This document shows positions 13,959-60,270 of a stretch of DNA of 64,000 bases, in pieces. The DNA comes from an uncultured Acidimicrobiaceae bacterium. GTDB taxonomy: Bacteria; Actinomycetota; Acidimicrobiia; Acidimicrobiales; SZUA-35. A program made the translations under genes and the position numbers. The stretch covers positions 131,643 through 195,642 of the forward strand of contig CAZYMB010000002.1 in NCBI GenBank assembly GCA_964648795.1, read 5' to 3'. The notes below the pieces were generated by a model, which ran no database searches, was not told the origin of the DNA, and saw only the letters and a list, made by a program, of their open reading frames with translations. Numbering within the stretch: the first letter of the stretch is position 1; every line of letters begins with the position of its first letter.

Positions 13959-15938
<1,980 letters not shown>

Positions 15939-17516: not shown

Positions 17517-17532
17517 AGGTAATCGTTTGCCT

Positions 17533-21149: not shown

Positions 21150-21370
21150 AAGAAATGCTGCTTCGTGGAATCAAAACGTATCAGTCCTACTCTGCTACTA
21201 GACCATGTCGCTGCCGGTACTTCCCCACCTGCAGCCACTACACAGCCGAAGCGATTGAAACCTACGGCGCTGTTAAAGGTTCGTGGATGGGCCTGAAACG
21301 AATATCTCGATGCCGACCTTTTGGTGCACACGGCTATGACCCTGTTCCTGCAGAAAGTGAGTGTTGCTAA
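21146..21370 (+). CDS. yidD: Membrane protein insertion efficiency factor YidD (start 21146 GTG or 21155 ATG)
   Basis: [46 protein letters not shown] is the YidD signature. Confidence 0.88.
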
Positions 21371-22429: not shown

Positions 22430-22445
22430 GTAAGAAGGTAATTCA

Positions 22446-45984: not shown

Positions 45985-46896
45985 TTACTGGGTCGGGGGC
46001 CTTCGAGCATTCTCGGCTCGTTTAGTTAGAAAGTCTTGGAGACTCTCGGATATATCTTCAGGTTTAGTTTCTACGATCCTGATTGATTTGCGGGTCTTAG
46101 GTTGCGGGGCTCGTTTCGCTGGGGCCTTACGCTTGCTCGTTTGTGGTTTACTTCTCTTGGACTTAGTGGCCTTAGTCGGATCTGATATACCAGTTTCTGG
46201 TGCTGTTAGATCCATCAAGCCCAGAAGAAAGAGTTGTTCTCTGACGACATGAAGGTCGACCCCAACTTTCTGAGCGAGAAGTTGCTGTTTGCCGCTGTGT
46301 CTTATTCGTTGTAGGACTACTGATTCGCTAATATCTCGGTTGGCTTTTTTAGCCGCATCTATTTTTTCTGTAGTGTCTGCTAGTTCTAGTTGTATGTCCA
46401 GTATGGCTTTAAAGTGCGAGCCGGGCTGCTTTGCTTCACTAGTGATGATGCCTTTGATTCGGCTATTTACGTTGCGCCGAATCTGGGTTGCAAGTAGGTC
46501 TTTGGTAGCGGCGTCGACGTCCGTGATAGATCGAATAGTTCTGTAGAGCTCGAGGGAACCGGCAGCTAGCAATATATCCGGGTCAATTAGTCCAAGCAGT
46601 CTTGGGATGTGATTGATACCAAGTGCAGTTGGATCTGCCGCATTGAGTTGGCTTTTGGCCCTCTTAGTGACTGCCATGACAAGGGGCGAGTAGTGTCGCC
46701 AGAGCAGTTTTGCTGCTTTATCTCCTTCAAAAAGTTTAGTGCTGACTTCGAGTTGTTGGCTTGGGTCAAGGTTGCGGTTATCTACGCCACGGAGCTTGTT
46801 GGCATCGGTAAGAGTTTTCCACGTTGATGCTAGTTCTTTGGCGCCTAGTTTTTGGCCGGAGAACAACGATGAAAAATTTGAAATGTTTATGGTCAT
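45985..46896 (-). CDS. Hypothetical protein with Lys/Arg/Pro-rich tail; possible sigma-like/HTH regulator divergent from the T4SS-like operon
   Basis: 303 aa. LLWRHYSPLVMAVTKRA weakly recalls sigma region 2. QQLLAQKVGVDLHVVREQL looks like an HTH. Tail: KSKRSKPQTSKRKAPAKRAPQPKTRK. The functional call is speculative. Confidence 0.35.
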   Translation of the reverse strand: MTINISNFSSLFSGQKLGAKELASTWKTLTDANKLRGVDNRNLDPSQQLEVSTKLFEGDKAAKLLWRHYSPLVMAVTKRAKSQLNAADPTALGINHIPRLLGLIDPDILLAAGSLELYRTIRSITDVDAATKDLLATQIRRNVNSRIKGIITSEAKQPGSHFKAILDIQLELADTTEKIDAAKKANRDISESVVLQRIRHSGKQQLLAQKVGVDLHVVREQLFLLGLMDLTAPETGISDPTKATKSKRSKPQTSKRKAPAKRAPQPKTRKSIRIVETKPEDISESLQDFLTKRAENARRPPTQ

Positions 46897-47171
46897 TTGT
46901 CCGCCTTATTGGTTATTAACTCTAGCCAAAAGCCATCGTTTTTGGTGATTCGGTCAACTTGATAGGGCAGCGGCCCCAATAGCTTGGGTAAATCTATTAT
47001 TCAGCTAGAATAGCGAGGTTAACGCCCTGGTTATCTAAAAACCAGTGTGGTAATCTTTAGATATAGCTAATTAAGAACTAGCTAGGCGGAAATTCGGCGG
47101 AACATTTTAAGCAAGGCTTTAGCGGGCAAGCTTCCAATTACTTCCGGGTTCTTACTAAAAGGAAAGTAATC

Positions 47172-47540
47172 ATGTTAGAAGTTCTAGATATTGTGAGCTT
47201 TGATTTATTGGCACAAGTAGATGTGCCCGAAGTTGGAAGTACAGAGATTCCTGGTCTTGGGCCAGTTCTCATAACAGTCCTTGAATGGGTTAAGTGGCTA
47301 TCAATCATCGCAGGTATTGGTGGCATTATTGTTATCGCCATCATGATGATGATCGGTCGTAGAAACCGTTCGCAGATGGCTGCAGATGGTCTATCTGCTC
47401 TCCCATGGATTGTTGGCGGGCTTATCTTAATTGGTATCTCAACTCAGTTTGCTCAGTGGCTAATCGATGCTGGTGAAGCAGGAGAATTTGGCGACGAGCA
47501 AGCGGCAGCATTAGTCGTAGAAGAAACTGAAGCTATCTAG
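47172..47540 (+). CDS. VirB2/TrbC-like two-TM small protein (paralog 1)
   Basis: RBS AAAGGAAAG. Two TM helices are separated by IGRRNRS. The protein aligns without gaps to the product of 49616-50302. Confidence 0.6.
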   Translation: MLEVLDIVSFDLLAQVDVPEVGSTEIPGLGPVLITVLEWVKWLSIIAGIGGIIVIAIMMMIGRRNRSQMAADGLSALPWIVGGLILIGISTQFAQWLIDAGEAGEFGDEQAAALVVEETEAI

Positions 47541-47583
47541 CTAAAGCTTCTTCTAGGAGCTTAGTTAGCGACAGGACCGAGAG

Positions 47584-48315
47584 ATGCGTCAGTCACAGGC
47601 ACAAGCAAGGATCATACTTTCCACGGTTGCCATATTGGTAATCGGAGGCCTTGCCGTGCTTGGCTGGTTCGTCATTAATAACACTCGAGACGAGACCATT
47701 GAAGAGGTAGCGGCTGCACCTGTTAGCCTTGAGCAAGTTCCGGCGACTCCATTTGAGTCCGAGCTTGACCGGCTTGGGACACTTACGAGAGCACAATTGA
47801 TCGCTAATCCAGTTGGTTACTCGTTTGAATCGCCTCAGCAAACATACTGGTATCCAGTCTCAGAAGAGTTTGGCCCAACTATTTTTGATGGCGTCACATC
47901 GTCTGGTTTCAGTAGGACTACTGAAGGAGCGGGCTTAGCAGCTATTCATCTGTACTATCGAAGCTTTCCAGTTAATCCAGAATTCCAGACAGTGTTAGAT
48001 GACCAGATAACCGGGCCTTCTAAATCGGTTATCGCTGATTCTAGGGTCTCTGCTGCAGAGCAACTGACCGGTTTTGATTCGGTCGCTCAGCGAACTTTCC
48101 CGGTCGGGTGGGATGTGTTGTCCTATGACGAAAACTCAGCAGAATTTCTTATTTACTATGGCGAAATAGAATCTGTTGATCTTTTTGGTCGACGACTCAG
48201 GGTGGCATGGAGTGACAATGATTGGAAGTTAGTGGCTTCTGGTGAGGCCCCATTCAGATCAATTAGTGATGTAGGTGTTCCAAGAGATTTCGATCTTACA
48301 GGGGCGTTCAAATGA
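47584..48315 (+). CDS. Bitopic membrane protein, possible VirB8-like T4SS component
   Basis: One N-terminal TM (IILSTVAILVIGGLAVLGWFVI) followed by an extracytoplasmic domain of about 200 aa. The VirB8-like call is based on architecture and position only. Confidence 0.4.
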   Translation: MRQSQAQARIILSTVAILVIGGLAVLGWFVINNTRDETIEEVAAAPVSLEQVPATPFESELDRLGTLTRAQLIANPVGYSFESPQQTYWYPVSEEFGPTIFDGVTSSGFSRTTEGAGLAAIHLYYRSFPVNPEFQTVLDDQITGPSKSVIADSRVSAAEQLTGFDSVAQRTFPVGWDVLSYDENSAEFLIYYGEIESVDLFGRRLRVAWSDNDWKLVASGEAPFRSISDVGVPRDFDLTGAFK

Positions 48316-49616
48316 AACGAATAATTTTTCTTAGTGTAGCTATTGTGTTCGCCGTGCTGTTGGCGCCGAGTGTTGCCTTTGCACAAGAGGTATCAATTCC
48401 TAATGACGCCGAGTGGCCGGCGATTCAGAACGATGAGAACTTCTTAGAGCTATACGAATTGTTTTCGAGTGAGGTTTCGGGTAATAGTACGTTGTCGGTC
48501 CCCACAGCGGAAGAGTTCTTTCAGACATTGAGTGAATTTGATGGTAATGATGGAGAGTACGGACGAGAGGAAGCGAGAAATCTTGGCCAAGTCTTTGTTG
48601 AGGTGCGAGGCGCCGATATACATGATCAGGGGAGTATCAACTCTTGTTCCTACAACGAGTTGGGCGGTCGTAAAGGAACAATTTCTAGCCCTCTTTCATT
48701 CATTGACGGACCGTTTGTTAGGGCCGACGCTTGGATTTGTAACAATTTTGTACCGAGTGAAATTGCGGAAGATGCCTTAGACAGCGCTGGCGATCAAATA
48801 TCTGAGACAGGTGATAGTGCGAGGGCTTGGGCAACCGAAGCTTTTGAATCTGTTGTCCATTGGATAGCAGGACGTCCTTCACTTATTACTACTGATGGTT
48901 GGGCTCAAACCACCCTGGCTGTTAATAGAGCCCTATTCACAATCACCATTGGAATAGTTGCGGCTGGAGTGCTTTGGCAGGCATTACGAATAATTTGGAA
49001 TAAGAGCGGCGTGCCGTTAGCTGACCTTATTAAGTCGATAGGTATTTTCGTCTTTGTCTCCATAACAGGGGTTTTCTTAGTTCAGTTAGCTTCAGCTGCT
49101 TCTGATGAGTTAGCAGCAAATTTCATTAGTTCAATTGACCTCGAGGAGCTAGAAGATTTTCAGCTGCCTGTACCCGAAGCCGTAGGCGATGTAGTAGTGG
49201 CAATATGGTCTCTGCTGTTGATCGTTGGGTTGGCGTTTCAGTTCATTGCAATCTTCGTCAAGGAGATTGGTGTTGTTATAGCAAGTGGCGCTCTAGCACT
49301 GGCTGCGGCAGGTCAGTTCTTTAATTTCTCTAAGCAATGGTTAGACAAGATAATTGGTGCCGTTATTGGCTTCATGGTGTTCAAGCCATTTATCGCTTTG
49401 AGTTTGGCGATCGGGTTTGAGATGATGAAGATCCCTGGAATCGTCGGGGTGATGGCTGGTGGTGTTACTGTCTTTATGACTGCTTTCGGTATCGGTCCAT
49501 TAATGAAGATCTTCACCAATATTGACTATGCCGGCAGTATCGGAAGCGGCTCGTCAATGGGTACTGGGGCTGTAATTCCAAGCGCTGGCCGAGGCGCACC
49601 AACGGGGGCGAGCTAA
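48312..49616 (+). CDS. TrbL/VirB6-like polytopic membrane protein
   Basis: Signal peptide ...APSVAFAQE, an ectodomain of about 180 aa, then 5-6 TM helices and a Gly/Ser-rich tail. Confidence 0.65.
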   Translation: MKRIIFLSVAIVFAVLLAPSVAFAQEVSIPNDAEWPAIQNDENFLELYELFSSEVSGNSTLSVPTAEEFFQTLSEFDGNDGEYGREEARNLGQVFVEVRGADIHDQGSINSCSYNELGGRKGTISSPLSFIDGPFVRADAWICNNFVPSEIAEDALDSAGDQISETGDSARAWATEAFESVVHWIAGRPSLITTDGWAQTTLAVNRALFTITIGIVAAGVLWQALRIIWNKSGVPLADLIKSIGIFVFVSITGVFLVQLASAASDELAANFISSIDLEELEDFQLPVPEAVGDVVVAIWSLLLIVGLAFQFIAIFVKEIGVVIASGALALAAAGQFFNFSKQWLDKIIGAVIGFMVFKPFIALSLAIGFEMMKIPGIVGVMAGGVTVFMTAFGIGPLMKIFTNIDYAGSIGSGSSMGTGAVIPSAGRGAPTGAS

Positions 49617-50302
49617 TGATAGTTAAAGCACTAGTAGCGAGTCTATTCTTTGGCATCTTCGTATTCGCCAGCCCTGTACATGCACAGAGTAACTGCGGAC
49701 CAGGACAAGTTAATCCCAATGCCTGCGAAAGTTTTAATGGGAGCGAAGAAGACCAAGCCGAGATAGCTGAAAGACTAGAAAATTTGGACGAAGAATTTTC
49801 CATACCCCAAGAGATTCCATCTCCAGTGATCGGTGGCGGTAATGACCAAGTAGGTTTACCACTTTTGCGTACCGTGCTTGGCTACCTTAAGTGGGTTGCA
49901 GGTATTGCAGGGCTTGGCGCATTCTTGTTGATTGGGCTTCAGATGTCTATTGGCCGACGCAATCGCTCAGCTTCGGCTGCCACAGCGTTAGGGGCGGCTC
50001 CTTGGGTTGCCGTAGGCCTAGTCTTAGTCGGTTTGAGTTCAGGTCTGGCTGAGTGGGTACTAGAAATAGCCCACCCTGACAACACCCGGGTAGCACCAAG
50101 TGTTCAAGAAGCTTTTGATGACTATCAATCTTGCCTGGAAATCGATGGCGCTAGTGAGCGTTCTGACTGCATAATCCAGTGGCGAGATGCGGACGGTTTC
50201 GGAGGCGGGATTAGGGAACAGGGCGCCCAATTTGCTGCCTGTGAGCTCATAGGTGATTCAGAAGAACGAGACATTTGCCACCTCAATAACAGCGGCCTCT
50301 AG
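49616..50302 (+). CDS. VirB2/TrbC-like protein (paralog 2) with signal peptide and Cys-containing N- and C-terminal extensions
   Basis: MIVKALVASLFFGIFVFASPVHAQ signal peptide, CGPGQVNPNAC, the core LKWVAGIAGLGAFLLIGLQMSIGRRNRS...PWVAVGLVLVGLSSGLAEW, and four Cys in the C-terminal 60 aa. Confidence 0.6.
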   Translation: MIVKALVASLFFGIFVFASPVHAQSNCGPGQVNPNACESFNGSEEDQAEIAERLENLDEEFSIPQEIPSPVIGGGNDQVGLPLLRTVLGYLKWVAGIAGLGAFLLIGLQMSIGRRNRSASAATALGAAPWVAVGLVLVGLSSGLAEWVLEIAHPDNTRVAPSVQEAFDDYQSCLEIDGASERSDCIIQWRDADGFGGGIREQGAQFAACELIGDSEERDICHLNNSGL

Positions 50303-50359
50303 GTCGAATGAATCATTAATTGAATAGGGGCTAGCTGACCTTTTCCTGAATAGGTCACA

Positions 50360-51898
50360 GTGGTACTCTTGTGTACATCGGCGGATATTGGAATAGGCGT
50401 GACAGAAACATCGGGTGAAGTAAGAACTTATGGCGGTTGGCGTCGTAAGCGCGGGCTTGGTCTATTCGGGTTGGGTCAAGTCGAGATGGGCGTAGCGTTT
50501 GTCGTACTAGCTGTGTTCTTCTGGGTACTAGTTTCGTTCAGAGTAATCCTTATCCCTATGGCCATAGTGACTGCAATCGTTATAGCTTCACTAATTCGCA
50601 TCGATGGTCTGCCTCTATGGTCCATAGTCAAACAAGAACTTAAACTTATTATGTCGGCTGCTCAAGGCGGCGGCCAGTTTGTATCAGGTTACTTCTCAAA
50701 CTATGCACAGGGCTCCGGCGCAAATCTTCCGGGGGCACTTGCTCCAACTAGAACGTTTGAGATAACAACTGACTCTGGCTCAAGCTACGGCGTTGTTTAT
50801 AATGATGCTTTAGAACATGCGACAGCAACCTGGCGAGTTCATCCTCATACTCCTCATTTAGCCGACCAAGCTCAGGTTGATACTTGGGTTGCTTCATGGC
50901 ATCAGTTCTTGGCGAGTCTTGGCTACATCGATCAGATATCGCATGTGGCTGTGACTGTGGCGACAGCAACTGAGCCGGGAGCGGTAGTCGCAGAGAATTT
51001 GATGGCTTCTCGAGCCGCTAATGCCCCAGCATTGGCGAAGGGCCTACTAGACGAGTTAGCCAGGCGAGAAACCGATGGAACTACTGTTTCTTCTACCTAT
51101 ATATCAGTAACATTTGACACTCGCTACGGGCCCGCTGGCCGTGAAAAGAATGCCGGGACCAGAATTGAACACGTTACTGGTCTGATAAGAGCTATGAACA
51201 GAGATATCAGAACATCTGGTTTGGCCTCAGCTACTCTGCTATCAGTCCCAGAACTGTCTGCGGTTACAAAGGGTGCCTTTGTTCCTTCTTTACGTAAGCC
51301 TTTAGTGGGGGCATTGCGAAGAGGTCAGACTGGACCGTTGCAATGGCATATCTCTGGACCAGGAAAAGCGGAATCTAATCGTTTCTACTACAGGCACGAT
51401 AACGCAATTACCACAGCCTGGACTATGCGAGAAGCTCCACGAGGGCATGTCACTGAAGATGTCCTATACAACCTTATGGCACCGGGTACGTTCCCGAAGC
51501 GAGTTACTTGGATGTGGAATCCTACCAAAGCCGATGATGCAGCAAGAATTCTTGAGACGGAAAGAACGTTAAGCGAAGCTAGACGGCTAGTTCGCGATCG
51601 AGGGCTGCGTGATGAAACAGCACGAGACGAATACGACCGTCAAATGACAGACATGGCAGCTGCTGATGAAGCCAGGGGTGCGGGCCTAGGAGACTTTACA
51701 ATTTTGGTTACAAACACAATCGAAGTGTCACCGGAGATTACAGAAGATCAGATTAACTCTCTGATCGATCAGGTCACTGTCGAAGTCGAGTCACGAGCGA
51801 AGCAGGCTCGTATGTTGTTGCGTCCAGCTTTCGGTTATCACGATTTAGTTCTTTTCAGCACTCTGCCAGCAGGCATCAACCCGGTGAAAGTTGGTTGA
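50360..51898 (+). CDS. VirB3-like TM hairpin fused to a soluble domain (resembles what I recall as the 'SCO6880 family'; possible VirB4 N-terminal-domain equivalent)
   Basis: YGGWRRKRGLGLFGLGQVEMGVAFVVLAVFFWVL...ILIPMAIVTAIVIASLI, then about 420 aa. The start is uncertain (50360 GTG or 50399 GTG). Confidence 0.5.
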   Translation: MVLLCTSADIGIGVTETSGEVRTYGGWRRKRGLGLFGLGQVEMGVAFVVLAVFFWVLVSFRVILIPMAIVTAIVIASLIRIDGLPLWSIVKQELKLIMSAAQGGGQFVSGYFSNYAQGSGANLPGALAPTRTFEITTDSGSSYGVVYNDALEHATATWRVHPHTPHLADQAQVDTWVASWHQFLASLGYIDQISHVAVTVATATEPGAVVAENLMASRAANAPALAKGLLDELARRETDGTTVSSTYISVTFDTRYGPAGREKNAGTRIEHVTGLIRAMNRDIRTSGLASATLLSVPELSAVTKGAFVPSLRKPLVGALRRGQTGPLQWHISGPGKAESNRFYYRHDNAITTAWTMREAPRGHVTEDVLYNLMAPGTFPKRVTWMWNPTKADDAARILETERTLSEARRLVRDRGLRDETARDEYDRQMTDMAAADEARGAGLGDFTILVTNTIEVSPEITEDQINSLIDQVTVEVESRAKQARMLLRPAFGYHDLVLFSTLPAGINPVKVG

Positions 51899-51900
51899 TA

Positions 51901-53769
51901 ATGGGTTTATTTAAGAAAAAAGAGATCGAAGTTGTAGAGACGAAGATTTATGGACCAGATGGACGCGTCTTGCCGCCATCTCCACATAACAGAGCTATCG
52001 TGCCAACCGAAGTTGTCGACTCCAATGCAGGGGCCGGACTTTCTAGAACTGCTCGTCCAATACATGGTGAATACCAAGAACAAAAGTCTGAGTACACCGA
52101 CGAAGGTATTAGGTCGGTTGCTCGTGGGTCTACAGGAACAAGAGTTGCTGCGGCTGGACCATTGGAGCCATCTGGCGAATCAAGTATTGGTAGTAGGAGC
52201 GGCGACTCTGGAAGACACGGTTACGTTCCTAACTTGAGCCTGTATACAGCACCAACTTCACAAGCCTGTGGTCTTTTCCCATTCGTAGTTGGTTCGGGTT
52301 CACCTAAAATTGGTGTTCCACTAGGACAACACGCGATCTTTGGTGAGACAATCTGTTTTGATCCGTTCTTTTGGCTTAGGGACAAAATTGTCACTAACCC
52401 CGGTGTATTCGTTATTGGACAACCCGGAATCGGTAAGTCGTCAACGGTTAAGCGCTTGCTCACAGGTATGGCAGGGTTTGGGCATCGGCCGTTAATCTTG
52501 GGCGACGTCAAACCAGACTACCCAGGGTTGATTCATGCTCTTGGTGGCCAAGTGATATCACTCGGGCGAGGTAAAGACCGACTAAACCCACTTGACAGCG
52601 GTCCGATCGCAGCAGCGGCTCGACGCTTAGAAGCCGCTGGTCTTCATGCCGAGGCGAAGAGACTAAACGAAGAGGCAAAGGGTAGACGTCTATCACTCTT
52701 AGTTGGGCTATGTCAGATTGGTCGCAAAGGCGAAGTTGTACAACCACACGAAGAAGTAATGCTGGCAAACTGCATCGAGTTTCTTGATAAGCGCGGCGTT
52801 GAATCTCCGCTTATCTCTGACGTAGTTGCGTTACTCCGAGATCCTCCGCTGGAGTTGGTTGAGGAATCTGGTTTCATCGTCGCTGGCCATCAGCGTCTTA
52901 CAACAGCTGCAGAACGGGCAATAGCCAATGAAGCTGGAGCAGAAATGAACGCACTGCAGCGGAGAGGCTTAACTGGCTTCTTGGATGCAGCTCAACCTGT
53001 ATTCCATACTCTCGAGTTGATGTTGAAGGGTTCTCTTCGAGGAATCTTTGATGGGCCTACCACGACGCCTATGGATTTAGATGCTCCGGCGATTGAAATT
53101 GATATTTCTTCTATCTCGTCGGTCGATGATGAGATGGGTATTTCGGCTTCGATGCTTGCGGTGTGGAGTTATGCATTCTCGACAGTAGATGCTGCATTAG
53201 AGTTATCAGATGCAGGTCTTATTCCGAGACGTAACTATGTTGCAGTCCTGGACGAATTGTGGCGAGCGTTACGTGGGTCTTCTGGGCTTGTAGACCGCAT
53301 TGACTCACTGACTCGTGTGAACCGCCAAAAGAGTATGGCTCAGATTATGGTCACTCACTCGTTGGCTGACCTTGAGGCTCTTTCGAGCGATAAAGACAGA
53401 GCTAAGGCAAAGGGTCTTATCGACCGCTCCGCAACGAAGTTGATTGGTGCTGTTCCTTCAAATGAGTTGGATGCGATTGCTGAACACGTTGGTGGATTAA
53501 CTCAGGCTGAACGCGACCTAGTTAGTAGTTGGACAGCTCCTGCTGATTGGAGTGGCGAGAGTATTCACCCTGGGATGGGACGTATGTTGATTAAGGCTGG
53601 TGAAAGAACGGGTCTGCCGGTTTCAGTATCGCTAACTGAAACAGAACTAAAGCTGTATGAGACGACCAATGTTGCTCAAGCGGCAAGAGAACACGAAGAT
53701 ATGACCCAACTTGGAAGCGGTCAGCGGCAGTTACCGCCGTCTCCGCCAGTCGCAGGAGGTTACAACTAA
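51901..53769 (+). CDS. VirB4-like T4SS ATPase (C-terminal ATPase module with disordered N-terminus)
   Basis: Walker A VIGQPGIGKSSTVKRL and Walker B YVAVLDELWRAL. ATG 51901 follows the upstream stop (TGATAATG). The ORF track starts at TTG 51895. Confidence 0.8.
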   Translation: MGLFKKKEIEVVETKIYGPDGRVLPPSPHNRAIVPTEVVDSNAGAGLSRTARPIHGEYQEQKSEYTDEGIRSVARGSTGTRVAAAGPLEPSGESSIGSRSGDSGRHGYVPNLSLYTAPTSQACGLFPFVVGSGSPKIGVPLGQHAIFGETICFDPFFWLRDKIVTNPGVFVIGQPGIGKSSTVKRLLTGMAGFGHRPLILGDVKPDYPGLIHALGGQVISLGRGKDRLNPLDSGPIAAAARRLEAAGLHAEAKRLNEEAKGRRLSLLVGLCQIGRKGEVVQPHEEVMLANCIEFLDKRGVESPLISDVVALLRDPPLELVEESGFIVAGHQRLTTAAERAIANEAGAEMNALQRRGLTGFLDAAQPVFHTLELMLKGSLRGIFDGPTTTPMDLDAPAIEIDISSISSVDDEMGISASMLAVWSYAFSTVDAALELSDAGLIPRRNYVAVLDELWRALRGSSGLVDRIDSLTRVNRQKSMAQIMVTHSLADLEALSSDKDRAKAKGLIDRSATKLIGAVPSNELDAIAEHVGGLTQAERDLVSSWTAPADWSGESIHPGMGRMLIKAGERTGLPVSVSLTETELKLYETTNVAQAAREHEDMTQLGSGQRQLPPSPPVAGGYN

Positions 53770-56012
53770 TGGTAGTACGCAATGATGTGGACTTTAAACG
53801 AAGAGGTCCACGGGCGGGCTTAGACTTCTCGTCTCAGCCACTCCCTTGGTTCTTCGTTTTCTCTGCTATTGGAATAGTGCTCATCCTATTTGTGGCGTGG
53901 GTAGCTGGCTGGGCTGCCGCATTACTTTCTGGAGTAGACGAAGGTCCTAGGTTTAACTTAGATCTTTTAGCGGCACTATTTACAGGTCGCTTTGCTTCCC
54001 AATGGCCAGGGGTGAACTCGATACTAATTACCGTTATTGCATTCATTCTCGCAGCGATTATGATTGCTCTGTTTTATGGTTTCTATCGACTAACAGTGGG
54101 CAAGTTCGGATACCAACCGAACGGGCTCGGCAACATTGATGATCTAAGTCAATTTACATTCAAAGAACGTTCTGAGCAGGCAGTCCGACTGCGTCCTCGC
54201 ACGCTTGCAGGAGTTGACCCAAAGTCGTTAGACCCGACTGAAGTGGGTATCCCCTTGGGAACCTGGCATGGCAAAGAAATCTATGCTGGCTTTGAAGATG
54301 TATCCATAGCAATCATGGCACCTCGTTCCGGTAAAACCTCGGCGCTAGGTGTGCCACAGATCTTGGCTGCTCCCGGCCCTGTAGTAGTTACTTCAAATAA
54401 GTCAGACATTTTTACGATCACGGTCGAGAAGCGTCAGAGAGACCATCCAAATGGAACTATCTGGGCCTTCGATCCTCAGGGTGTTGTTCAAGCGGAACCA
54501 AACTGGTTTTGGAATCCTCTAGGTCACGTTGAAGATTTCGACAGCGCGATGGAACTAGCCGAGATGTTTGTTGGTCGCAAAGGTGCAGACGATCAGGGCT
54601 CAGGTAACGCAGAGTTCTTCCAGTCCGCTGGTCGTAACTATCTTGCGTATCTCTTTCTGGCAGCGGCAGTGCCGACCAAAACCTCTCCTCCGGCAACACT
54701 TCGTGAAGTGGATGCGTGGCTAGATACCTCAGACCCTATCGATGCAATCTTTAGGTTGCAGGCAGCAGGTGAACTGAACCATGCTAAGGCGTTGAAATCG
54801 ACAGTAGATGGCCCGCCAGAAACAGTCGGTGGCATCATCGCAACAGCTCGTGATGCCGCAGTTGCGTTAAAGTCCGAGAAGATTATTCGTTGGGTTAGCC
54901 CAGGTGATGGGCGTGTCGAGTTCTCGGCCGAGAACTTTATCGATTCGGAAGATACTTTGTATCTCATGTCGAACGAAAAGTCGGCATCTGCATCTGCACC
55001 TTTGATTGCTGCCTTTGCTTCCCGAGTGTTTGACGTTGGTTCTGAGCAAGCCTCAAGACGGTACAAGATGCGGCTAGATCCACCCCTTGTTGCAGTGCTC
55101 GATGAGGCTGCCAATATTTGTAAAATTCCAGGTCTTCCTTCTGGTTATTCTCACTATGGTTCACGTGGAATCTGCGTAACAACTATCTTCCAGTCTTCGC
55201 ATCAGCCGGTGCGTGTTTGGGGCCAAAATGCGTGGAAGGAAATGTGGTCAGCGGCAACGATTAAACTAATTGGTCCTGGTATTGACGATCCTTCGTTTGC
55301 CGAGGAGCTGTCTAAGCTAGTCGGTGGAACCGACCAAGAGACAGGTACCTATCAGACCTCTAGTACAGGGTCGAGCTATTCGGTTTCCATGAGGCAAGAG
55401 CAAATTCTTGCGGCATCGGATATTCGAATTATCGAGAAGTCGAAGATGCTATTGCTAGCTACAGCAACTAAACCAGCGATGTTGGATCAGGTTCGCTACT
55501 ATCAGGGACCTCATGCAGATGAGTTAAATTCTGATGAGCAGCGTATTGCCGATCTTATTACGAGGAAGGCTACTGCTGCTGCCGAACAAGAAGCTGCTGA
55601 GAAGGCACAACTGCATGCCCAAGCTGAGCAGGCTGCATCAGCCAGAGCCTCAGAGGCAACTTCACGTATGTCAGGCGGCGCAAATGCTGCTGCATCGAAC
55701 TTAACGGGTGTGGCTGTAGGTACACCGCCTCCTCCTCCAGCTGAAAGTAGAGGAAGGCAACAAATTGAGTTACCAGATCACAGGTCGAGTGGAATAGCTG
55801 ATGGTATGGGAGCCTCGGAACTTGAGGATAGTGGGCTTGCTGATGAATTCTTTGACGATGGCAGAGATCAAGCTTTGGATCCTGAGTTTGTTGAGTTCAT
55901 TACGGGTGATGCTGCAACAAACGGCGATCCAGCTAGAAAGTTGCCGCCGCCTCCACCACCGAGTGCAACGGGACGACAAACAAATAATTCATATGAAGGC
56001 GAAGGGCAATAA
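53769..56012 (+). CDS. VirD4/TraG-like type IV coupling protein
   Basis: N-terminal TM helices, Walker A IMAPRSGKTSALGVP, Walker B LVAVLDEAANI, and a long A/E/P-rich tail with two PPPPP runs. Confidence 0.8.
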   Translation: MVVRNDVDFKRRGPRAGLDFSSQPLPWFFVFSAIGIVLILFVAWVAGWAAALLSGVDEGPRFNLDLLAALFTGRFASQWPGVNSILITVIAFILAAIMIALFYGFYRLTVGKFGYQPNGLGNIDDLSQFTFKERSEQAVRLRPRTLAGVDPKSLDPTEVGIPLGTWHGKEIYAGFEDVSIAIMAPRSGKTSALGVPQILAAPGPVVVTSNKSDIFTITVEKRQRDHPNGTIWAFDPQGVVQAEPNWFWNPLGHVEDFDSAMELAEMFVGRKGADDQGSGNAEFFQSAGRNYLAYLFLAAAVPTKTSPPATLREVDAWLDTSDPIDAIFRLQAAGELNHAKALKSTVDGPPETVGGIIATARDAAVALKSEKIIRWVSPGDGRVEFSAENFIDSEDTLYLMSNEKSASASAPLIAAFASRVFDVGSEQASRRYKMRLDPPLVAVLDEAANICKIPGLPSGYSHYGSRGICVTTIFQSSHQPVRVWGQNAWKEMWSAATIKLIGPGIDDPSFAEELSKLVGGTDQETGTYQTSSTGSSYSVSMRQEQILAASDIRIIEKSKMLLLATATKPAMLDQVRYYQGPHADELNSDEQRIADLITRKATAAAEQEAAEKAQLHAQAEQAASARASEATSRMSGGANAAASNLTGVAVGTPPPPPAESRGRQQIELPDHRSSGIADGMGASELEDSGLADEFFDDGRDQALDPEFVEFITGDAATNGDPARKLPPPPPPSATGRQTNNSYEGEGQ

Positions 56013-56416
56013 TGGAAGACTTTCTGATGGACTTTGAAGAAGATCAAAAAGATGAGGGTGGCTCGCTTTATGCAAGTACTGTTGACGAATTTGTGGAGAC
56101 GTTTATACGTGTCCACTATGAAACGCCAATATTGGACACATCTGGGGCCATCAGATGGTGTAATAGGTGGAAAGACCACCCACAAGCTATACTTATATTT
56201 GAGGGTCTGTGGCGTAGTTACGAAGAAGCTAGAGCCGCAGACATGGTTAATGCAGGCGGTCAAAGCACAATGAATTACTTGGTGGGACACTTCTATCCGA
56301 TGATGGATCGAATTACTGGTTCCTATGGTCCGTTCAAACGGTGTACTCCTGATAATTGCGCTGGCGCAGTGAAACTGGGAGAGGTTATTGACCCTGAGAG
56401 GTTAGTAGGTTACTAA
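56012..56416 (+). CDS. DUF4913-like protein
   Basis: LYASTVDEFVETFIRVHYE...IRWCNRWKDHPQAILIFEGLWRSYEEA matches my recollection of the DUF4913 pattern found next to actinobacterial coupling proteins. Confidence 0.55.
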   Translation: MEDFLMDFEEDQKDEGGSLYASTVDEFVETFIRVHYETPILDTSGAIRWCNRWKDHPQAILIFEGLWRSYEEARAADMVNAGGQSTMNYLVGHFYPMMDRITGSYGPFKRCTPDNCAGAVKLGEVIDPERLVGY

Positions 56417-57744
56417 TGGGACCAAGAGACGGAAGCATGTCTGCCGGAGGACCTTCGGGTCAAAGTTCTGGTGGGACAGCAGAAACACATGCAAGAGCTA
56501 TGTCTGCTTCACTTGAAAAGTGGAAGCCAATAGACTTCAATGCCACTCCGAGTGAAACAGCTGAGCTTGTCTTAGTAGAGGCCGAGGTAGCTCAATCGCA
56601 AGCACCACGTGGTTCGTCGAGACCAGAACCAGAAACTATTTGGGCAACCGTTGTAGATGGTGTCGAAGATAGCGCTCGAATAGAAGACGAGGCTGCTCGC
56701 GAGCAGTTCATCAATGATCTCACAGATCAACTGGCTTTTGAACTTGGATTAGAAGACGCAGAGAGATCTCGCCTTGGCGTAGACCTGAAAACGTTGGCGG
56801 TTACGGCCAAAGTTCTTGGTGCTCCTTTTGTTATTGGTTACATCGGTATCCAAGTTGCAGCATTCATTTCCGCAGAGGCCATGAATGACCCCGAGGGGAT
56901 CAACGTCTTTGATGCTAGCAAGCAGGTTCTAGGTGTTCTAGGAAAAGTAGCTTCAATTGTTACAGCCGTTTACTTACTGTTCAACAAGCTTCGAAGCCGA
57001 GATGAGAGTAAGCCCTCACTGACCAGAGATCAGTTGCGAGCTCTAATTGCTAGAGATATTGATAGCTATGTTGGCAACACGAATGCTGCTGCTGAAGCTG
57101 CCAGTAGAGGTGCTGGACGTAGCGATGGAAACGGGCCTGATAACGGCAATGGTCGTGATAGTGGTGGAAATGGTCGAGGACCTGGTGGACCCGGTGACCC
57201 AACTCCAGGTAGCCCTGGTGATGATGGGTTAGGCCAAGAGTGGCCCGGTCAAAACGTTGCGGATGCCACAGTAGAGTTCGTTGAAACTGACGCTGAGGTT
57301 GTCGATGCAGAAGTGATCGATGAAGATATTGAAGACCTCGATACTGCAGCATCTTATGCAACAGAATCGAATACCCGGAAAAATTCAGTGCCTGTTGATC
57401 TACGTCCTTTGGCTGACCAAGATGGTCCTTTAGGAACAAGCGCGGCTGATACAAATACCGAGCCTGGTCCGGTTATCGCTCCGAAGCATCGAGACGACAT
57501 AGTGATTGGTGAAGAAGTTCGAGATCTAACAGGGCAGACATACCCCGATGTTAAGCCAATGCTTGCATTGCCAGCGGCGGGAGAAACTAAGAGTGCATAC
57601 GGGCCAGATATGATAGTGGACCTGCTAGTAGAAAGTGCTAAGCGTGCTGAGGCGGCTAAAGGTAAAGGTCGAGGGTATGAAGCCGCAGTCGTCGCAGAGC
57701 AGTTTGGTACTGATCGTCAAGACGACTTCGGACTTACGGTTTAG
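56416..57744 (+). CDS. Hypothetical membrane protein with G/D/P/N-rich segment
   Basis: Two central TM helices (VLGAPFVIGYIGIQVAAFISA, VLGKVASIVTAVYLLF). Low-complexity segment GRSDGNGPDNGNGRDSGGNGRGPGGPGDPTPGSPGDDG. Confidence 0.5.
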   Translation: MGPRDGSMSAGGPSGQSSGGTAETHARAMSASLEKWKPIDFNATPSETAELVLVEAEVAQSQAPRGSSRPEPETIWATVVDGVEDSARIEDEAAREQFINDLTDQLAFELGLEDAERSRLGVDLKTLAVTAKVLGAPFVIGYIGIQVAAFISAEAMNDPEGINVFDASKQVLGVLGKVASIVTAVYLLFNKLRSRDESKPSLTRDQLRALIARDIDSYVGNTNAAAEAASRGAGRSDGNGPDNGNGRDSGGNGRGPGGPGDPTPGSPGDDGLGQEWPGQNVADATVEFVETDAEVVDAEVIDEDIEDLDTAASYATESNTRKNSVPVDLRPLADQDGPLGTSAADTNTEPGPVIAPKHRDDIVIGEEVRDLTGQTYPDVKPMLALPAAGETKSAYGPDMIVDLLVESAKRAEAAKGKGRGYEAAVVAEQFGTDRQDDFGLTV

Positions 57745-57746
57745 CC

Positions 57747-58445
57747 ATGAGTCGCTCCTTTCCGGGATCAAAGCAGATACTGCAGGACAAAGCTCGTATG
57801 GCTGACTTAACTCGTCGTATAGCGAGAGATCGTCACCAAGATGCGAAACAAGAGTTAGCTGATGCGAAGGCTGATCGTAGGCGCACGAATAAAGAAGCTA
57901 ACAGTGACTACAGGAAAGCTAAAGCGAGTGCTTTGACTCCAGCTGCCGAGAAGAAGGCTAAGGAAGAATTGAAGAGGGCTAAAACTAAAGCTAATGGGCA
58001 AGTGAAACTGGCTGATGCCAAGGTTGCTAAAGCGGGTGATCGGTCGGACAAGGCTAAAGAGGTTAAGAAATCGGCCAACGGAGATTTGAAGTCATATAAG
58101 AAACAGCGTCGCGAGAAGGTTTTGGATGCTGGTGCAACCTTTATTGGCAAGCCAGCTGGTGCAGCACTTGGTGCAATGGGGCTGAAAGGCTCGAACGATA
58201 AAGGGCTAACCGATTTGATTAGTGGAGCGCTTGATAGTACTGAGGATGCTGCGCAGGGTATTACGGTGAGCGATGGTCTTGAGAGTATGCAAGATGTTGG
58301 TAAGGGAGCTCTAAAAGTTGGTAAGGCAGGCTTTGATTTAACAAAGGCGGCAATTAAGGGTGGCAAAATGCTTGTTAACCCAGCGAGTTTGGTTACGGGC
58401 CTTGCTGACAAGGTGATATCAGTCTTAGAAGGAACAAGCAGGTAG
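57747..58445 (+). CDS. Hypothetical Lys/Ala-rich coiled-coil protein with Gly-rich C-terminal half
   Basis: AKQELADAKADRRRTNKEANSDYRKAKA...KKAKEELKRAKTKA. No TM is obvious. Confidence 0.45.
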   Translation: MSRSFPGSKQILQDKARMADLTRRIARDRHQDAKQELADAKADRRRTNKEANSDYRKAKASALTPAAEKKAKEELKRAKTKANGQVKLADAKVAKAGDRSDKAKEVKKSANGDLKSYKKQRREKVLDAGATFIGKPAGAALGAMGLKGSNDKGLTDLISGALDSTEDAAQGITVSDGLESMQDVGKGALKVGKAGFDLTKAAIKGGKMLVNPASLVTGLADKVISVLEGTSR

Positions 58446-58449
58446 GGCT

Positions 58450-59169
58450 ATGGCTGAGGCTACAGAGGCTGAGGCTACAGAGGCCGAGCCGACTACTGCT
58501 GGAAGACTTCCACTTTGGAGAACCGCTAACCGAGTCGGCTATCTTGCATCTGCCGCAAACTTTGTTTTGTATTTCGCCCTTTGGCCTTTTGGACAAGAAG
58601 CTCGAGCAGCCCGTGCTCCTAGGGGCCCGATACGAAGAAACCGACGGTCTACGGCGTTCTCTTTGGTGAGGGGCACAGTAGGTAGAGTTGGTCGCCTCTG
58701 GAGAGTTATATATCGCTGGCCTCTGATTGCTTTGACGTATCAGTTCTTCGTGGGAGGTATCTCACTTGGTGTAGGAGCTCTTGGAGGCTGGTTGCTAATG
58801 GCCGGCATAGTTGCGTTCAACGCAAATAACCTCATTGCGCTCGCTAGGCGAGCTTTTCATCAACGTAGCTTCGCTAATGGTACTAATCCACAACCACCGC
58901 CGCCACCGCGACCTTTCTACATAGAGGGGCAAGGGTCGCAATGGGGGATTCACGACCACACACCTACGGTTACCGATACAGTGTTTCATCAACGTCGCTA
59001 TACAAATCATGCCCCTCCAATCCAGGTAGTCACCCGAACACGGGCAGCCTTCGGGCGAGGTGCCGTCCGGGTCAGCGATGGTATTTATGGTTTTGCTAGC
59101 AATATGGGCACACAGGCAAAAGACTTGTTTGAGCAACGTCGAGGCAAAGGCCCTAAGAATACTAAGTGA
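58450..59169 (+). CDS. Hypothetical membrane protein with EATEA repeat and poly-Pro run
   Basis: MAEATEAEATEAEPTT, encoded by a duplicated gctgaggctacagag unit. Two or three TM helices and PQPPPPPRP. Confidence 0.45.
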   Translation: MAEATEAEATEAEPTTAGRLPLWRTANRVGYLASAANFVLYFALWPFGQEARAARAPRGPIRRNRRSTAFSLVRGTVGRVGRLWRVIYRWPLIALTYQFFVGGISLGVGALGGWLLMAGIVAFNANNLIALARRAFHQRSFANGTNPQPPPPPRPFYIEGQGSQWGIHDHTPTVTDTVFHQRRYTNHAPPIQVVTRTRAAFGRGAVRVSDGIYGFASNMGTQAKDLFEQRRGKGPKNTK

Positions 59170-59189: not shown

Positions 59190-59375
59190 GTGAGTTCTTC
59201 TGTGGTGTCAAGTTTCATACGAATGCTCGACGAGCCTAAGAACACTTTGGGGCGCACAGAAGAAGTTGTCGAGATGGTTTTGGAGAAGCCAGAGCTGATT
59301 GAAGATTTGTATCAGTGCTACTTAGAACTCTCTGATGATTGGATAGTACAGAATTGTTGCAGTCTAATTAGGTAG
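59190..59375 (+). pseudogene. Probable N-terminal remnant of a HEAT-like 'DNA alkylation repair enzyme' family gene
   Basis: The 61-aa ORF LGRTEEVVEMVLEKPELIEDLYQCYLELSDDWIVQNCCSLIR resembles the N-terminus I recall for COG4335-type proteins (normally about 220 aa). It ends at TAG with no continuation before the next gene. Confidence 0.35.
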
Positions 59376-59410: not shown

Positions 59411-59854
59411 ATGATCAATTCGTTTAGTGCAAACCTGATGGTGGCCGACGTCACAAAATCTATTGAGTTCTACGTTGACGTCATAGGCGCAACCATTGCA
59501 TTTACCGTTGATGCCGAGAAGAATTCACTTAACGAAGCGGTCATTGATAATACGATCTTTGGTTCTATGCGAGTTGGTCAAACTGAATTAATGCTTCAAG
59601 AACGACAGAACCTAATCGCTGATGCGCCGGCTGCATTCTCAGACGAAGACACCCCTGGTGGATCGCTCAGCCTTTACTTCAGAGTCGACAATGTTGATGA
59701 AGTCGCAGAGCAAATTGCAGCAGCAACACCTGAGATAGAAGTCGTCAAACCAATGGAGCTGACCTGGTACGGCATGAAAGAAATTTGGATCAAGGACCCA
59801 GATGGCTACGTTGTTACCGCTGGGACTCCTGAGGGACCACCACCGGCTAGCTAG
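59411..59854 (+). CDS. VOC (glyoxalase/bleomycin-resistance/dioxygenase) family protein
   Basis: FSANLMVADVTKSIEFYVDVIG ... WYGMKEIWIKDPDGYVV is the typical VOC fold pattern. Confidence 0.7.
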   Translation: MINSFSANLMVADVTKSIEFYVDVIGATIAFTVDAEKNSLNEAVIDNTIFGSMRVGQTELMLQERQNLIADAPAAFSDEDTPGGSLSLYFRVDNVDEVAEQIAAATPEIEVVKPMELTWYGMKEIWIKDPDGYVVTAGTPEGPPPAS

Positions 59855-60270
59855 GCATTTGTCCAATCTTCAACAACTTTAGCCCCTGCACTAGCTTTGA
59901 TGCTTTTGCAGCCGATCGTATCTAGGAATGTCGCTGGGGTCCATTTACCGGCTTTGGAAGCTGGCTCCTCACGCTTATGTCCAGGCTCACCCCATTCAAC
60001 ATAGGCTATGACCGACTCAGGGTTCTCAAATTCAGAGTTTGAGTACAATCCCATTTCGCCTTTGGCAGCGTCCAATCCACCAAAAGCTGAAGCCGCTACC
60101 TTTACAGATGCCGATGCCGCTATCTCACCGGAAGGAACATCTGGGTATTCTGGGAATTGGCATAGTTTCAAACCTGTCGGATCGGCAGCTTCGGGGCCTC
60201 CGTTTGTCACTACAACGTAGCCGTTGTCGCCAAAGGTGATTTCTGAAATATAGAACGGACTGTCAGCCAT
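59851..60270 (-). CDS. Hypothetical protein, possibly lamin-tail-domain-like
   Basis: FYISEITFGDNGYVVVTNGG...GLKLCQ is reminiscent of the LTD pattern ISE..-..-.E.yN. This is weak. Confidence 0.35.
   Translation of the reverse strand: MADSPFYISEITFGDNGYVVVTNGGPEAADPTGLKLCQFPEYPDVPSGEIAASASVKVAASAFGGLDAAKGEMGLYSNSEFENPESVIAYVEWGEPGHKREEPASKAGKWTPATFLDTIGCKSIKASAGAKVVEDWTNA

Follow-up and report, generated by a model that had tools for sequence, protein, structure and literature searches.

A chromosomal SCO6880-type type IV secretion gene cluster in an uncultured Acidimicrobiaceae bacterium: an eight-gene core with an apparently split VirB4 and no recognized mobility genes

RESULTS

Eleven tightly packed genes downstream of nrdAB include the core of a type IV secretion system

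The subject of this study is a gene cluster of an uncultured Acidimicrobiaceae bacterium (Acidimicrobiales, SZUA-35). It lies in a 64-kb stretch of DNA, termed the window in the following, which comprises positions 131,643-195,642 (forward strand) of contig CAZYMB010000002.1 in assembly GCA_964648795.1. ORF calling and translation showed that positions 47172-59169 of the window hold eleven tightly packed open reading frames (ORFs), all on the plus strand: 47172-47540, 47584-48315, 48312-49616, 49616-50302, 50360-51898, 51895 (or ATG 51901)-53769, 53769-56012, 56012-56416, 56416-57744, 57747-58445, and 58450-59169. Neighboring ORFs either overlap by 1-4 nt or are separated by 2-57 nt, which agrees with a preliminary description of this DNA that had reported eleven same-strand genes with tight junctions. 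Eight of the eleven genes, designated g1 to g8 in their order from 47172 to 56416, are the conserved core of an SCO6880-type actinobacterial type IV secretion system (T4SS). They code for two VirB2-like pilins, a DUF8175 protein, a VirB6-like polytopic protein, an SCO6880-family protein, a VirB4-like ATPase, a VirD4 coupling protein, and a DUF4913 protein. By its core genes the locus belongs to a known, poorly dissected family of conjugation modules, which is no functional blank.

A profile scan with the SCO6880 protein in which each species was represented by one genome yielded 80 related loci, whose flanks were read to 10 kb. One of them lies in a metagenome-assembled genome of the Acidimicrobiales (locus L003, 73% identity), and the remainder belong to the class Actinomycetes (30-35% identity), including Micromonospora, Kineococcus, Actinomadura, Nocardiopsis, and other genera. 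As determined by tblastn and by hidden Markov models (HMMs) of the families built from the related loci, the core order pilin-like protein, DUF8175, VirB6-like protein, SCO6880, VirB4-like ATPase, VirD4, and DUF4913 is conserved. It recurs in ~60-80 of the Actinomycetes loci, the window having an extra pilin paralogue. The nearest SCO6880 homologues outside the small clade formed by the window and its close relatives share 33-36% identity, and a metagenome scan for close relatives gave a best match of 36% identity, which was of no use for synteny. In a plasmid collection, 443 plasmids were matched by the SCO6880 protein and 535 by the ATPase; essentially all belong to the Actinomycetota, and many are typed as conjugative. 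On the virulence plasmid pVAPA2282 of Rhodococcus equi the order is SCO6880, ATPase, hypothetical protein, M23 peptidase, hypothetical protein, coupling protein, DUF4913, and topoisomerase, followed further on by a MobF relaxase, and five families of the cluster are shared with pVAPA.

The SCO6880 protein and the following ATPase may together correspond to VirB4

The SCO6880-family protein (50360-51898, plus strand) matched NF042935 with an E value of 1.2e-96 and 324.5 bits, the curated cut-off being 60, and its residues 22-506 aligned to profile positions 1-477. Together with the core gene order, this score substantiates the assignment to the SCO6880 type that had been proposed as one option. 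A hydropathy scan showed a double transmembrane (TM) segment at the N-terminus (residues ~32-90), a VirB3-like hairpin that appears to be fused to a VirB4-like non-ATPase domain. The VirB3-like hairpin protein listed as a separate component in the preliminary description is in fact this N-terminus. We modeled the structure of the SCO6880 protein with AlphaFold2 (AF2) from a 19-sequence alignment (mean pLDDT 75.8, pTM 0.75). When the model was compared to the PDB with Foldseek, the top 14 matches were all TrwK/VirB4 of R388, with a best E value of 8.7e-11, a probability of 1.0, and ~390-406 aligned columns at an identity of just 12-16%. The next matches were unrelated flavoproteins of the VAO/BBE type (E 3e-3 and weaker), and 2 of 39 SCO6880 proteins gave weak matches to Pfam FAD-oxidase_C; these matches may mean that the VirB4 N-terminal-like domain distantly resembles the flavoprotein fold.

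No Walker A motif was found in 75 members of the SCO6880 family, and the Foldseek matches of the model included neither a VirB4 structure limited to the C-terminal domain (4AG5) nor any other RecA-type ATPase, suggesting that the fold match concerns the N-terminal domain of VirB4. The two TM helices ahead of this domain are, judging from the model and the hydropathy profile, probably the equivalent of VirB3.

The gene that follows (51895-53769, plus strand) encodes an ATPase of the VirB4 C-terminal-domain type with the Walker A motif GQPGIGKSS, the Walker B motif VLDELW, and a clade-specific N-terminal extension of ~110 amino acids (aa). A Walker A motif and DE[LAM]W were present in 67 of 67 members of this family, whose gene stands directly after that of SCO6880 in nearly all of 82 loci. 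The protein was recovered by its family HMM c3 (1.5e-202) and matched the C-terminal domain of Thermoanaerobacter VirB4 (PDB 4AG5) at 1.1e-6. The NCBIfam VirB4 models remained below threshold (best E 8.6e-16, 15-57 bits at cut-offs of 325-1020) and aligned only with their C-terminal, P-loop-containing halves. In PHROGs, there were two matches far below threshold (E 0.0027 and 0.0066). Plasmid homologues always begin to align at residue ~110-117 which, together with the restriction of the matches to C-terminal halves of VirB4, indicates an ATPase without the VirB4 N-terminal domain. The combination of N-terminal domain and RecA-like ATPase in one polypeptide, at scores above the cut-offs, was not found in this protein. 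The weak, exclusively C-terminal matches of the ATPase and the N-terminal-like fold predicted for the product of the preceding gene point to a split architecture: the SCO6880 protein appears to be a fusion of VirB3 with the N-terminal part of VirB4, and the next gene would supply the C-terminal part, so that VirB4 would be distributed over two genes. This reading is new here; no such statement was found in two papers mentioning SCO6880.

The VirD4 coupling protein and the DUF4913 protein

The VirD4-type coupling protein (T4CP; 53769-56012, plus strand) has two N-terminal TM segments, the Walker A motif APRSGKTS, and the Walker B motif VLDEAAN; all Walker motifs quoted in the preliminary description for the two ATPases were present in the translations. 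It matched PF02534 (3.8e-31), PF12696 (2.8e-28), PF10412 (3.1e-9), and NF045973 (1.9e-22). Tested against family models, the earlier assignment of the two ATPases stands in the case of VirD4, whereas for VirB4 it holds at sub-threshold scores, for the C-terminal half, and with the additional match to 4AG5. Residues 1-621 of VirD4 are 85% identical to those of the orthologue on L123, a further Acidimicrobiales contig, but the C-terminal tail (residues ~622-747) is acidic, proline-rich, and hypervariable and could not be aligned with it.

The DUF4913 protein (56012-56416, plus strand; PF16259, 1.8e-19) is encoded by the most conserved gene of the cluster, with 93% identity to L123 and 85% to L003, and always follows the T4CP. 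We infer that it is a partner or adaptor of the T4CP. An AF2 model computed from a 3-sequence alignment was weak (pLDDT 62) and had no match in Foldseek, and a chimeric DUF8175-DUF4913 query for deeper alignments recovered 3 proteins only. Relatives of DUF4913 with 52-66% identity form the N-terminal domain of two AAA+ proteins of the ClpA/B-D2 type, P0141 and P0142 (436 and 427 aa), whose genes (loci L131 and L132, same sample series) lie in a non-T4SS context with DeoR and ROK regulators. The fusion to a Clp-type AAA+ domain suggests that DUF4913 is a module working with hexameric ATPases.

Pilin-like and membrane components

Two genes code for VirB2-like proteins, in line with the two-TM proteins reported before. 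The first (47172-47540, plus strand) is a two-TM hairpin with an IGRRNRS loop and shares 72% identity with its L003 copy. The second (49616-50302, plus strand) has the same hairpin and loop, a signal-peptide-like N-terminus, and cysteine-containing extensions at both ends. The related-loci family HMM c8 recognized them at 1e-28 and 2.4e-20, respectively. Matches to Pfam TrbC and T4SS_pilin were below threshold for both proteins (E 5.6e-4 to 1.6e-2), namely TrbC at 5.7e-3 and T4SS_pilin at 7.6e-3 for the first and T4SS_pilin at 5.6e-4 for the second. The number of pilin-like genes varies among loci: two are present in the window and three each in the Nocardiopsis locus L058 and in L003, where two stand in tandem upstream and one precedes the SCO6880 gene (L003 6801-7581 and 9331-9867).

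The DUF8175 protein (47584-48315, plus strand; precomputed match to PF26526, family HMM c4 2.2e-26) is bitopic, with one N-terminal TM segment (residues 6-34) and an extracytoplasmic domain of ~200 aa. This topology fits the bitopic, NTF2-fold VirB8/TcpC/PrgL type, and the protein is a candidate for a VirB8/TcpC-like channel subunit; its family profile had no match among PDB sequences. The protein encoded at 48312-49616 (plus strand; family HMM c2 2e-44) has, according to the hydropathy scan, a signal-peptide-like N-terminus, an extracytoplasmic domain of ~180 aa, and 5-6 TM segments, and its gene has a constant place ahead of that of SCO6880 in 58 of 82 loci. Of the earlier TrbL/VirB6-like designation, the signal peptide and the 5-6 hydrophobic segments were found again, but support from Pfam was lacking, with 0 of 25 family members matching any Pfam family at E <= 0.01; the VirB6/TrbL call consequently rests on topology, position, and conservation of the family.

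The duplicated pilin-like genes would be compatible with a machine for DNA uptake or DNA release, and relaxase-less chromosomal T4SSs for uptake exist, such as ComB of Helicobacter. ComB systems, however, lack VirD4, which the cluster has kept, and a competence-type DNA receptor or nuclease domain was not recognized in the cluster. As for release, the Neisseria DNA-release island requires its own relaxase. We consider an uptake or release function highly improbable.

Accessory and mobility genes of related loci were not found in the window

To define the companions of the module, all ORFs within 10 kb in the 80 related loci were clustered, and the cluster representatives were analyzed with Pfam. 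An SLT plus NlpC/P60 or an NlpC/P60 hydrolase gene was present in 54 of the 80 loci; it is divergent and lies directly upstream, at the position taken by ORF 45985-46896 in the window. A DnaG-type primase was encoded in 28 loci, a MobA/VirD2 relaxase in 8, and ArdC in 4, and excisionase-like helix-turn-helix (HTH) genes also occurred. A search of the whole window, translated in six frames, with the 29 accessory-family HMMs derived from these loci gave no match for hydrolase, primase, MobA/VirD2 relaxase, or ArdC; only the eight core families were detected. The M23 peptidase and topoisomerase of pVAPA and the available fragment of its MobF relaxase likewise had no match in the window. Neither Pfam and NCBIfam, applied to all ORFs of the nrdB-VOC interval, nor PHROGs or PADLOC, applied to some of them, recognized a relaxase, an integrase, or a cell-wall hydrolase. 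The nrdB-VOC segment is flanked by short imperfect repeats only, with no direct repeats of the attachment-site (att) type beyond chance, and inverted repeats resembling an origin of transfer (oriT) did not exceed chance either. The window thus contains none of the features expected of a self-transmissible element, i.e., a linked relaxase, a hydrolase, or an integrase or excisionase with att sites. The earlier statement that none of these enzymes is recognizable in or beside the cluster is in agreement with both sets of HMM scans. The same applies to the hypothetical genes 45985-46896 and 56416-59169, which had been singled out as possible hidden relaxase or hydrolase genes and for which no significant HMM match was obtained.

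These results raise the question of a conjugative channel acting in trans, with relaxase and oriT located elsewhere, i.e., on the chromosome, a mobilizable element, or a plasmid, and with transfer of single-stranded DNA, perhaps in a manner resembling high frequency of recombination (Hfr) donors. In favor of such a channel, VirD4 with intact Walker motifs and DUF4913 are both retained and highly conserved. The relaxase is often unlinked in the SCO6880-type family, being found within 10 kb in 8 of 80 loci. Conjugation is the function of the homologous modules of SLP2 and pVAPA (PMC2782261, PMC6852188), and actinobacterial relaxases are probably under-detected (PMC4027160). On the other hand, no relaxase, primase, topoisomerase, or ArdC was found in the 64 kb, no oriT-like inverted repeat stands out, and the loss of the hydrolase, present in 54 of 80 related modules, would be unexpected for a working mating channel. 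Overall, we regard transfer in trans, the main rival of the explanation favored below, as rather unlikely.

The cluster occupies the same core-gene slot in related genomes and is probably under purifying selection

Core genes adjoin the cluster on both sides, namely rpsF-ssb-rpsR-rplI-dnaB-nrdAB to its left and VOC-galK-metal hydrolase-ThiF to its right, and the segment from nrdB to VOC measures 13.4 kb. The cluster was found in the same slot in three further Acidimicrobiales contigs, L003, L123, and L127. L003 carries dnaB (88% aa identity to the window), nrdA (85%), nrdB (86%), g1-g8 (72, 34, 39, 33, 73, 77, 72, and 85%), two non-homologous tail ORFs, and a metal-dependent hydrolase gene. 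L123 carries g5-g8 (78, 80, 85, and 93%), three tail ORFs, VOC (90%), galK (95%), and the metal hydrolase gene (96.5%). On L127, the series rpsF-ssb-rpsR-rplI-dnaB-nrdA-nrdB (93%) is followed by a minus-strand ORF of 260 aa and the start of g1 at the contig end. None of the eight core genes is truncated in the window or in L003, and the four that are located on the L123 contig (g5-g8) are full-length as well.

For the core genes, the proportions of nonsynonymous differences (pN) were 0.04-0.22 and those of synonymous differences (pS) 0.56-0.89, which is at or near saturation. The dN/dS of 0.04 obtained for DUF4913 equals that of neighboring housekeeping genes; such ratios are bounds only, as synonymous sites are saturated for most pairs. 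The GC content at third codon positions (0.35-0.44) is within the range of the surrounding core genes (0.33-0.53), and overall GC content is also host-like; the nearest homologues outside the clade come from Micromonospora, Actinomadura, and similar genera, which, judging by their names, we take to be high-GC organisms. Among 5.8 billion proteins, four share more than 70% identity with the SCO6880 protein, including the window's own sequence. The cluster is confined to a small clade. From the shared slot, pN far below pS, the host-like composition, and the scarcity of close homologues we infer that the cluster was acquired once, long ago, and has since been inherited vertically under purifying selection.

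These data are hard to reconcile with an ordinary integrative and conjugative element (ICE), or an integrated plasmid, that has its integrase, relaxase, and att sites just beyond the examined region. Plasmids and ICE-like islands of Actinomycetes do carry the module along with excisionase-like HTH genes, relaxases, and hydrolases, and the right end of the window is just 4.8 kb from the cluster. Nevertheless, the cluster and its core-gene flanks keep their synteny in L003, L123, and L127 at saturated synonymous divergence; the variable position of an ICE was not observed, and the composition is not atypical but identical to that of the host. The borders lack direct repeats, no tRNA gene is nearby, and the small number of close SCO6880 homologues is unlike a spreading element. 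An ICE therefore appears extremely unlikely.

Alternatively, the cluster could be a remnant, functionless and in decay, of an ICE or plasmid that inserted long ago; this could account for the loss of accessory genes, the gene remnant at 59190-59375, the orphan genes of the tail, and the 33-39% identity of the extracytoplasmic components between the window and L003. Against it stand the full-length core genes with intact Walker motifs, the preserved start/stop coupling, and a pN far below pS for every core gene. We judge a remnant very unlikely. The results argue for a long-resident, selected chromosomal system which is neither an active ICE nor a decaying remnant. The option of a fixed or domesticated T4SS, one of those raised at the outset, gains strength from the common slot in the three additional contigs.

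Conservation is uneven along the cluster. Motor and coupling parts in the cytoplasm are conserved (72-93% identity). For the extracytoplasmic parts (DUF8175, the VirB6-like protein, and the second pilin), identity between the window and L003 is only 33-39%. Downstream of DUF4913, the relatives have other genes in place of those of the window, similar in size and composition but with no detectable sequence similarity. This pattern of a conserved engine and diversifying surface- or substrate-side parts would fit a machine that meets other cells or variable substrates.

Next to the cluster, the galK gene (60342-61568) differs from its L123 counterpart (9281-10513) by a pS of 0.12, compared to 0.5-0.8 for its neighbors and saturation for the T4SS genes. 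This looks like a recent local recombination tract adjoining the cluster. As galK lies 1.2 kb downstream of the cluster, its low pS hints at recent DNA exchange and would favor the channel acting in trans, but the anomaly is restricted to a single gene, for which ordinary recombination is possible.

Upstream gene, variable tail, and chromosomal context

The minus-strand ORF 45985-46896 (g0), which ends 7 nt from the nrdB stop codon (45977), is divergent from the operon and encodes a basic cytoplasmic protein of 303 aa. At the same position, related Actinomycetes loci have the NlpC/P60 or SLT hydrolase gene. Pfam, NCBIfam, PHROGs, and PADLOC gave no match, and the protein has no cysteine, TM segment, or signal peptide; a diverged hydrolase was rejected due to the lack of cysteine, export signal, and family matches. 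Its positional counterpart on L127, the 260-aa ORF mentioned above, is similar only in the C-terminal 90 aa (BLASTP 9e-5), and L003 has a different ORF of 155 aa at this position. The protein is possibly a regulator, and its membership of the system is uncertain.

Between this gene and the operon, the intergenic region 46897-47171, read on the plus strand, holds a conserved non-coding block (~47020-47171) with 76% nucleotide identity over 196 nt to L127, the core of which is also common to L003. A consensus sigma-70 promoter was not found in 46897-47171, no Rfam family matched 47020-47171, and promoter and terminator scans gave nothing beyond chance. The block may function as promoter, operator, or leader.

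The first gene of the tail (56416-57744, plus strand) is translationally coupled to that of DUF4913 and encodes an orphan acidic protein of 442 aa with a central TM hairpin and a glycine/proline-rich linker. It had no match in Pfam, NCBIfam, PHROGs, or PADLOC, and an exhaustive phmmer search of 1.84 billion representatives returned only the protein itself. Positional counterparts of similar build are present in L123 (458 aa) and L003 (413 aa), the similarity to the former being compositional only. The second gene (57747-58445, plus strand) encodes a protein of 232 aa rich in alanine and lysine (A16, K15). ORFs of the same composition occupy this position in L123 (166 aa) and in L003 (106 aa), the latter giving a faint reciprocal phmmer match. 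Its matches to Pfam DUF7232 (E 0.0028, 18.6 bits at a cut-off of 27) and PHROG 3006 (E 0.0093) were far below threshold, and NCBIfam and PADLOC yielded nothing. The third gene (58450-59169, plus strand), coding for a membrane protein of 239 aa rich in arginine and alanine, is specific to the window: no homologue was found in L123 or L003 and no match in Pfam, NCBIfam, PHROGs, or PADLOC. It is probably a lineage-specific addition and may not be part of the machine. A relaxase hidden in 56416-59169 was discounted, as these genes encode membrane or low-complexity orphans that have no HUH-type histidine pair and lack conservation even in the nearest relatives. Hidden enzymes are likewise unlikely among the unassigned ORFs as a whole, g0 included. 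The tail ends on the right with a 61-aa ORF (59190-59375, plus strand), a remnant of a gene for 180 aa that L123 has retained in intact form (72% aa identity over 50 aa, 94% nucleotide identity over 100 nt), which represents gene decay at this edge.

The cluster is origin-proximal, as stated previously: dnaA is located at 19012-20415, the cumulative GC-skew minimum at ~17-19 kb, and the operon, which begins ~27 kb from dnaA, is transcribed in the direction of replication. Also as described, no tRNA gene borders the cluster, the only ones in the window being at 4602 and 10354 (the nearest ~37 kb away), and the left neighbor lies 7 nt from the nrdB stop. The origin region (11487-23288) comprises gyrA, gyrB, recF, dnaN, and dnaA on the minus strand and yidC and jag on the plus strand, with parA (26110-26991, plus strand) further along. 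Two ORFs in the flanks had no family match. One of them, 41458-42051 (197 aa), separates dnaB from nrdA and shows weak conservation in L003 and conservation of position in L127; the other, 59851-60270 (139 aa, minus strand), lies between VOC and galK and is absent from L123.

DISCUSSION

Relation to known systems

The SCO6880-type modules of pVAPA in Rhodococcus/Prescottella equi, of Streptomyces lividans (SLP2.19-23), and of Streptomyces coelicolor (SCO6871-6884) contain the same families in the same order as the cluster described here. In contrast to these, the latter belongs to the class Acidimicrobiia, is 25-36% identical to all others, and is located on the chromosome between core genes. 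It lacks the M23, NlpC/P60, or SLT hydrolase, the primase or topoisomerase, and the MobF or MobA relaxase, and it has in addition a pilin paralogue between the VirB6-like and SCO6880 genes, the ~110-aa extension of the ATPase, and an orphan tail.

The belief expressed in the preliminary description that the function of SCO6880-type clusters is not experimentally established does not hold. The SLP2.19-23 homologues are needed for conjugal transfer of the Streptomyces plasmid SLP2, and for a chromosomal paralogue, cmdABCDEF, a phenotype in sporulation and chromosome segregation was described, while SCO6878 and SCO6881 null mutants show no visible phenotype (PMC2782261). The pVAPA plasmid family is experimentally conjugative and was described as using TraA(MobF) together with the T4SS (PMC6852188). 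The co-transcribed cmd genes (SCO4126-4131 of S. coelicolor) have no role in plasmid transfer and provide a precedent for co-option; according to the same description, CmdB, a VirB4-like ATPase, CmdC, and CmdD resemble SCO6878, SCO6880, and SCO6881, respectively (PMC2782261). They differ from the cluster in that they number six, with no VirD4 or DUF4913 reported (PMC2782261), and in that their host is mycelial and sporulating rather than an uncultured member of the Acidimicrobiales.

Besides cmdABCDEF, the nearest functional analogue of the cluster is the chromosomal T4SS of the Patescibacteria. This system, which derives from MPF-FATA, is of the monoderm type, mostly relaxase-less, and often located near dnaA, and a non-conjugative co-option has been proposed for it; its parts are VirB2-like paralogues, VirB3, VirB4, VirB6, and a T4CP (PMC12102498). 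It has a VirB4 of another lineage, VirB3 and VirB4 are separate and complete, and SCO6880 and DUF4913 are absent. It is phylum-wide, and in the one case tested epibiotic growth depended on it, whereas the cluster of the window is confined to a very small clade. With the Trw system of R388 (TrwM/VirB3 and TrwK/VirB4), the common features are the predicted fold of SCO6880, which matches TrwK, and the TM hairpin that precedes the domain as VirB3 precedes VirB4; fusions of VirB3 and VirB4 are known (PMC12102498). The predicted break point is different in the window, the hairpin and the non-ATPase half forming one protein and the ATPase half another.

The MPF-FATA systems (CD1110/CD1112/CD1115; PrgI/PrgH/PrgL of pCF10) have the same general list of parts, i.e., VirB3, VirB4, VirB6, and a T4CP, and the best NCBIfam matches of the two ATPases of the window are CD1110 (VirB4-like) and CD1115 (VirD4-like). 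The scores are 32-80 bits, however, at cut-offs of 250-325, and no VirB8 of the PrgL/TcpC type and no CHAP or SLT hydrolase was recognized in the window. Pilin-like genes, which the cluster possesses, are unusual for Firmicutes systems.

A host-retained T4SS as the favored explanation

The lack of a linked relaxase, primase, topoisomerase, hydrolase, or integrase, together with the same slot in diverged genomes, suggests co-option by the host. Our favored, though still tentative, explanation, to which we would give not quite an even chance, is that the cluster encodes a functional, host-retained minimal T4SS which has lost the ability to transfer itself and whose export cargo is not its own DNA. 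The locus would be a vertically inherited derivative of an actinobacterial mating-channel module from a plasmid or ICE, stripped to the eight-gene core plus a fast-evolving tail. In such a machine, the VirB6-like polytopic protein and the bitopic DUF8175 protein would form the membrane channel, and the two VirB2-like proteins its extracellular or periplasm-side part. The SCO6880 protein would dock the separate VirB4 C-terminal ATPase to the membrane, both together representing a split VirB3-VirB4 motor. A VirD4 hexamer and its constant partner DUF4913 would select the substrate and feed it into the channel, so that export by the co-opted system would depend on the T4CP, the cargo being a protein or a nucleoprotein. 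The VirD4 tail, genes 56416-59169, and the variable extracytoplasmic parts may serve lineage-specific recognition of substrates or cell surfaces.

Several points weigh against this explanation. To our knowledge, the SCO6880-type family has no close relative among monoderm T4SSs for which a non-DNA substrate is proven. The VirB6-like role of 48312-49616 and the VirB8-like role of the DUF8175 protein are putative. The assignment of SCO6880 to the N-terminal part of VirB4 comes from one predicted model, for which the aligned half of TrwK is not reported by the Foldseek tool, and sequence-level tests of the relationship were not significant: the SCO6880 profile had no meaningful match among PDB sequences, Pfam recognized VirB3 in just 2 of 39 members (best E 0.13), and hhalign of the profile with the CD1110 VirB4 of Streptococcus suis gave no significant result. 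Absence of a hydrolase is not unique to the clade, as 22 of the 80 related loci are also without every tracked accessory family, and linkage of the relaxase is loose even in mobile elements, as the low number of loci with a relaxase within 10 kb illustrates. Relaxases of actinobacteria are moreover probably missed by current profiles, as pointed out by Guglielmini et al. 2014 (PMC4027160). The comparison of dnaB-nrdAB synteny proposed in the preliminary description recovered the cluster-bearing slot in the three contigs but no clean empty site: relatives at 82-84% NrdB identity are without the cluster beside nrdB, and their synteny is rearranged. Finally, the explanation covers the 64-kb window and the 10-kb flanks of the relatives, and a relaxase and oriT elsewhere in the genome would turn the system into a conjugation channel acting in trans.

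A more specific version of the host-retained T4SS, which we put forward with somewhat greater reserve as a possible one, is a permanently domesticated, relaxase-less machine in the origin-proximal chromosome of a small Acidimicrobiales clade. It would act either as a contact-dependent exporter, in which the fast-diversifying VirD4 tail, the pilins, and the orphan genes of the tail would serve lineage-specific recognition between cells or the delivery of effectors, or as an Hfr-like donor of chromosomal DNA, and in either case it would have the minimal set of eight genes and a split VirB4.

Significance

A relaxase-less T4SS alone will not surprise specialists; what is useful and testable is the fixation in Acidimicrobiales, the minimal set of eight genes, and the split VirB4. 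SCO6880-type T4SSs are common on plasmids of Streptomyces, Rhodococcus, and Arthrobacter, where their parts are mostly annotated as "hypothetical," "ATP-binding protein," or "SCO6880 family." The chromosomal copy shows which eight genes persist without DNA-processing and mobility functions. The interpretation of SCO6880 as VirB3 plus the N-terminal half of VirB4 would provide a concrete, testable role for a family that is present on hundreds of plasmids. The host belongs to an abundant but uncultured aquatic lineage. If co-option is true, its cluster would join the Streptomyces cmd genes and the T4SS of the Patescibacteria as a monoderm conjugation machine captured by its host. If a relaxase is encoded elsewhere, the locus would be a candidate apparatus for the exchange of chromosomal genes in Acidimicrobiales.

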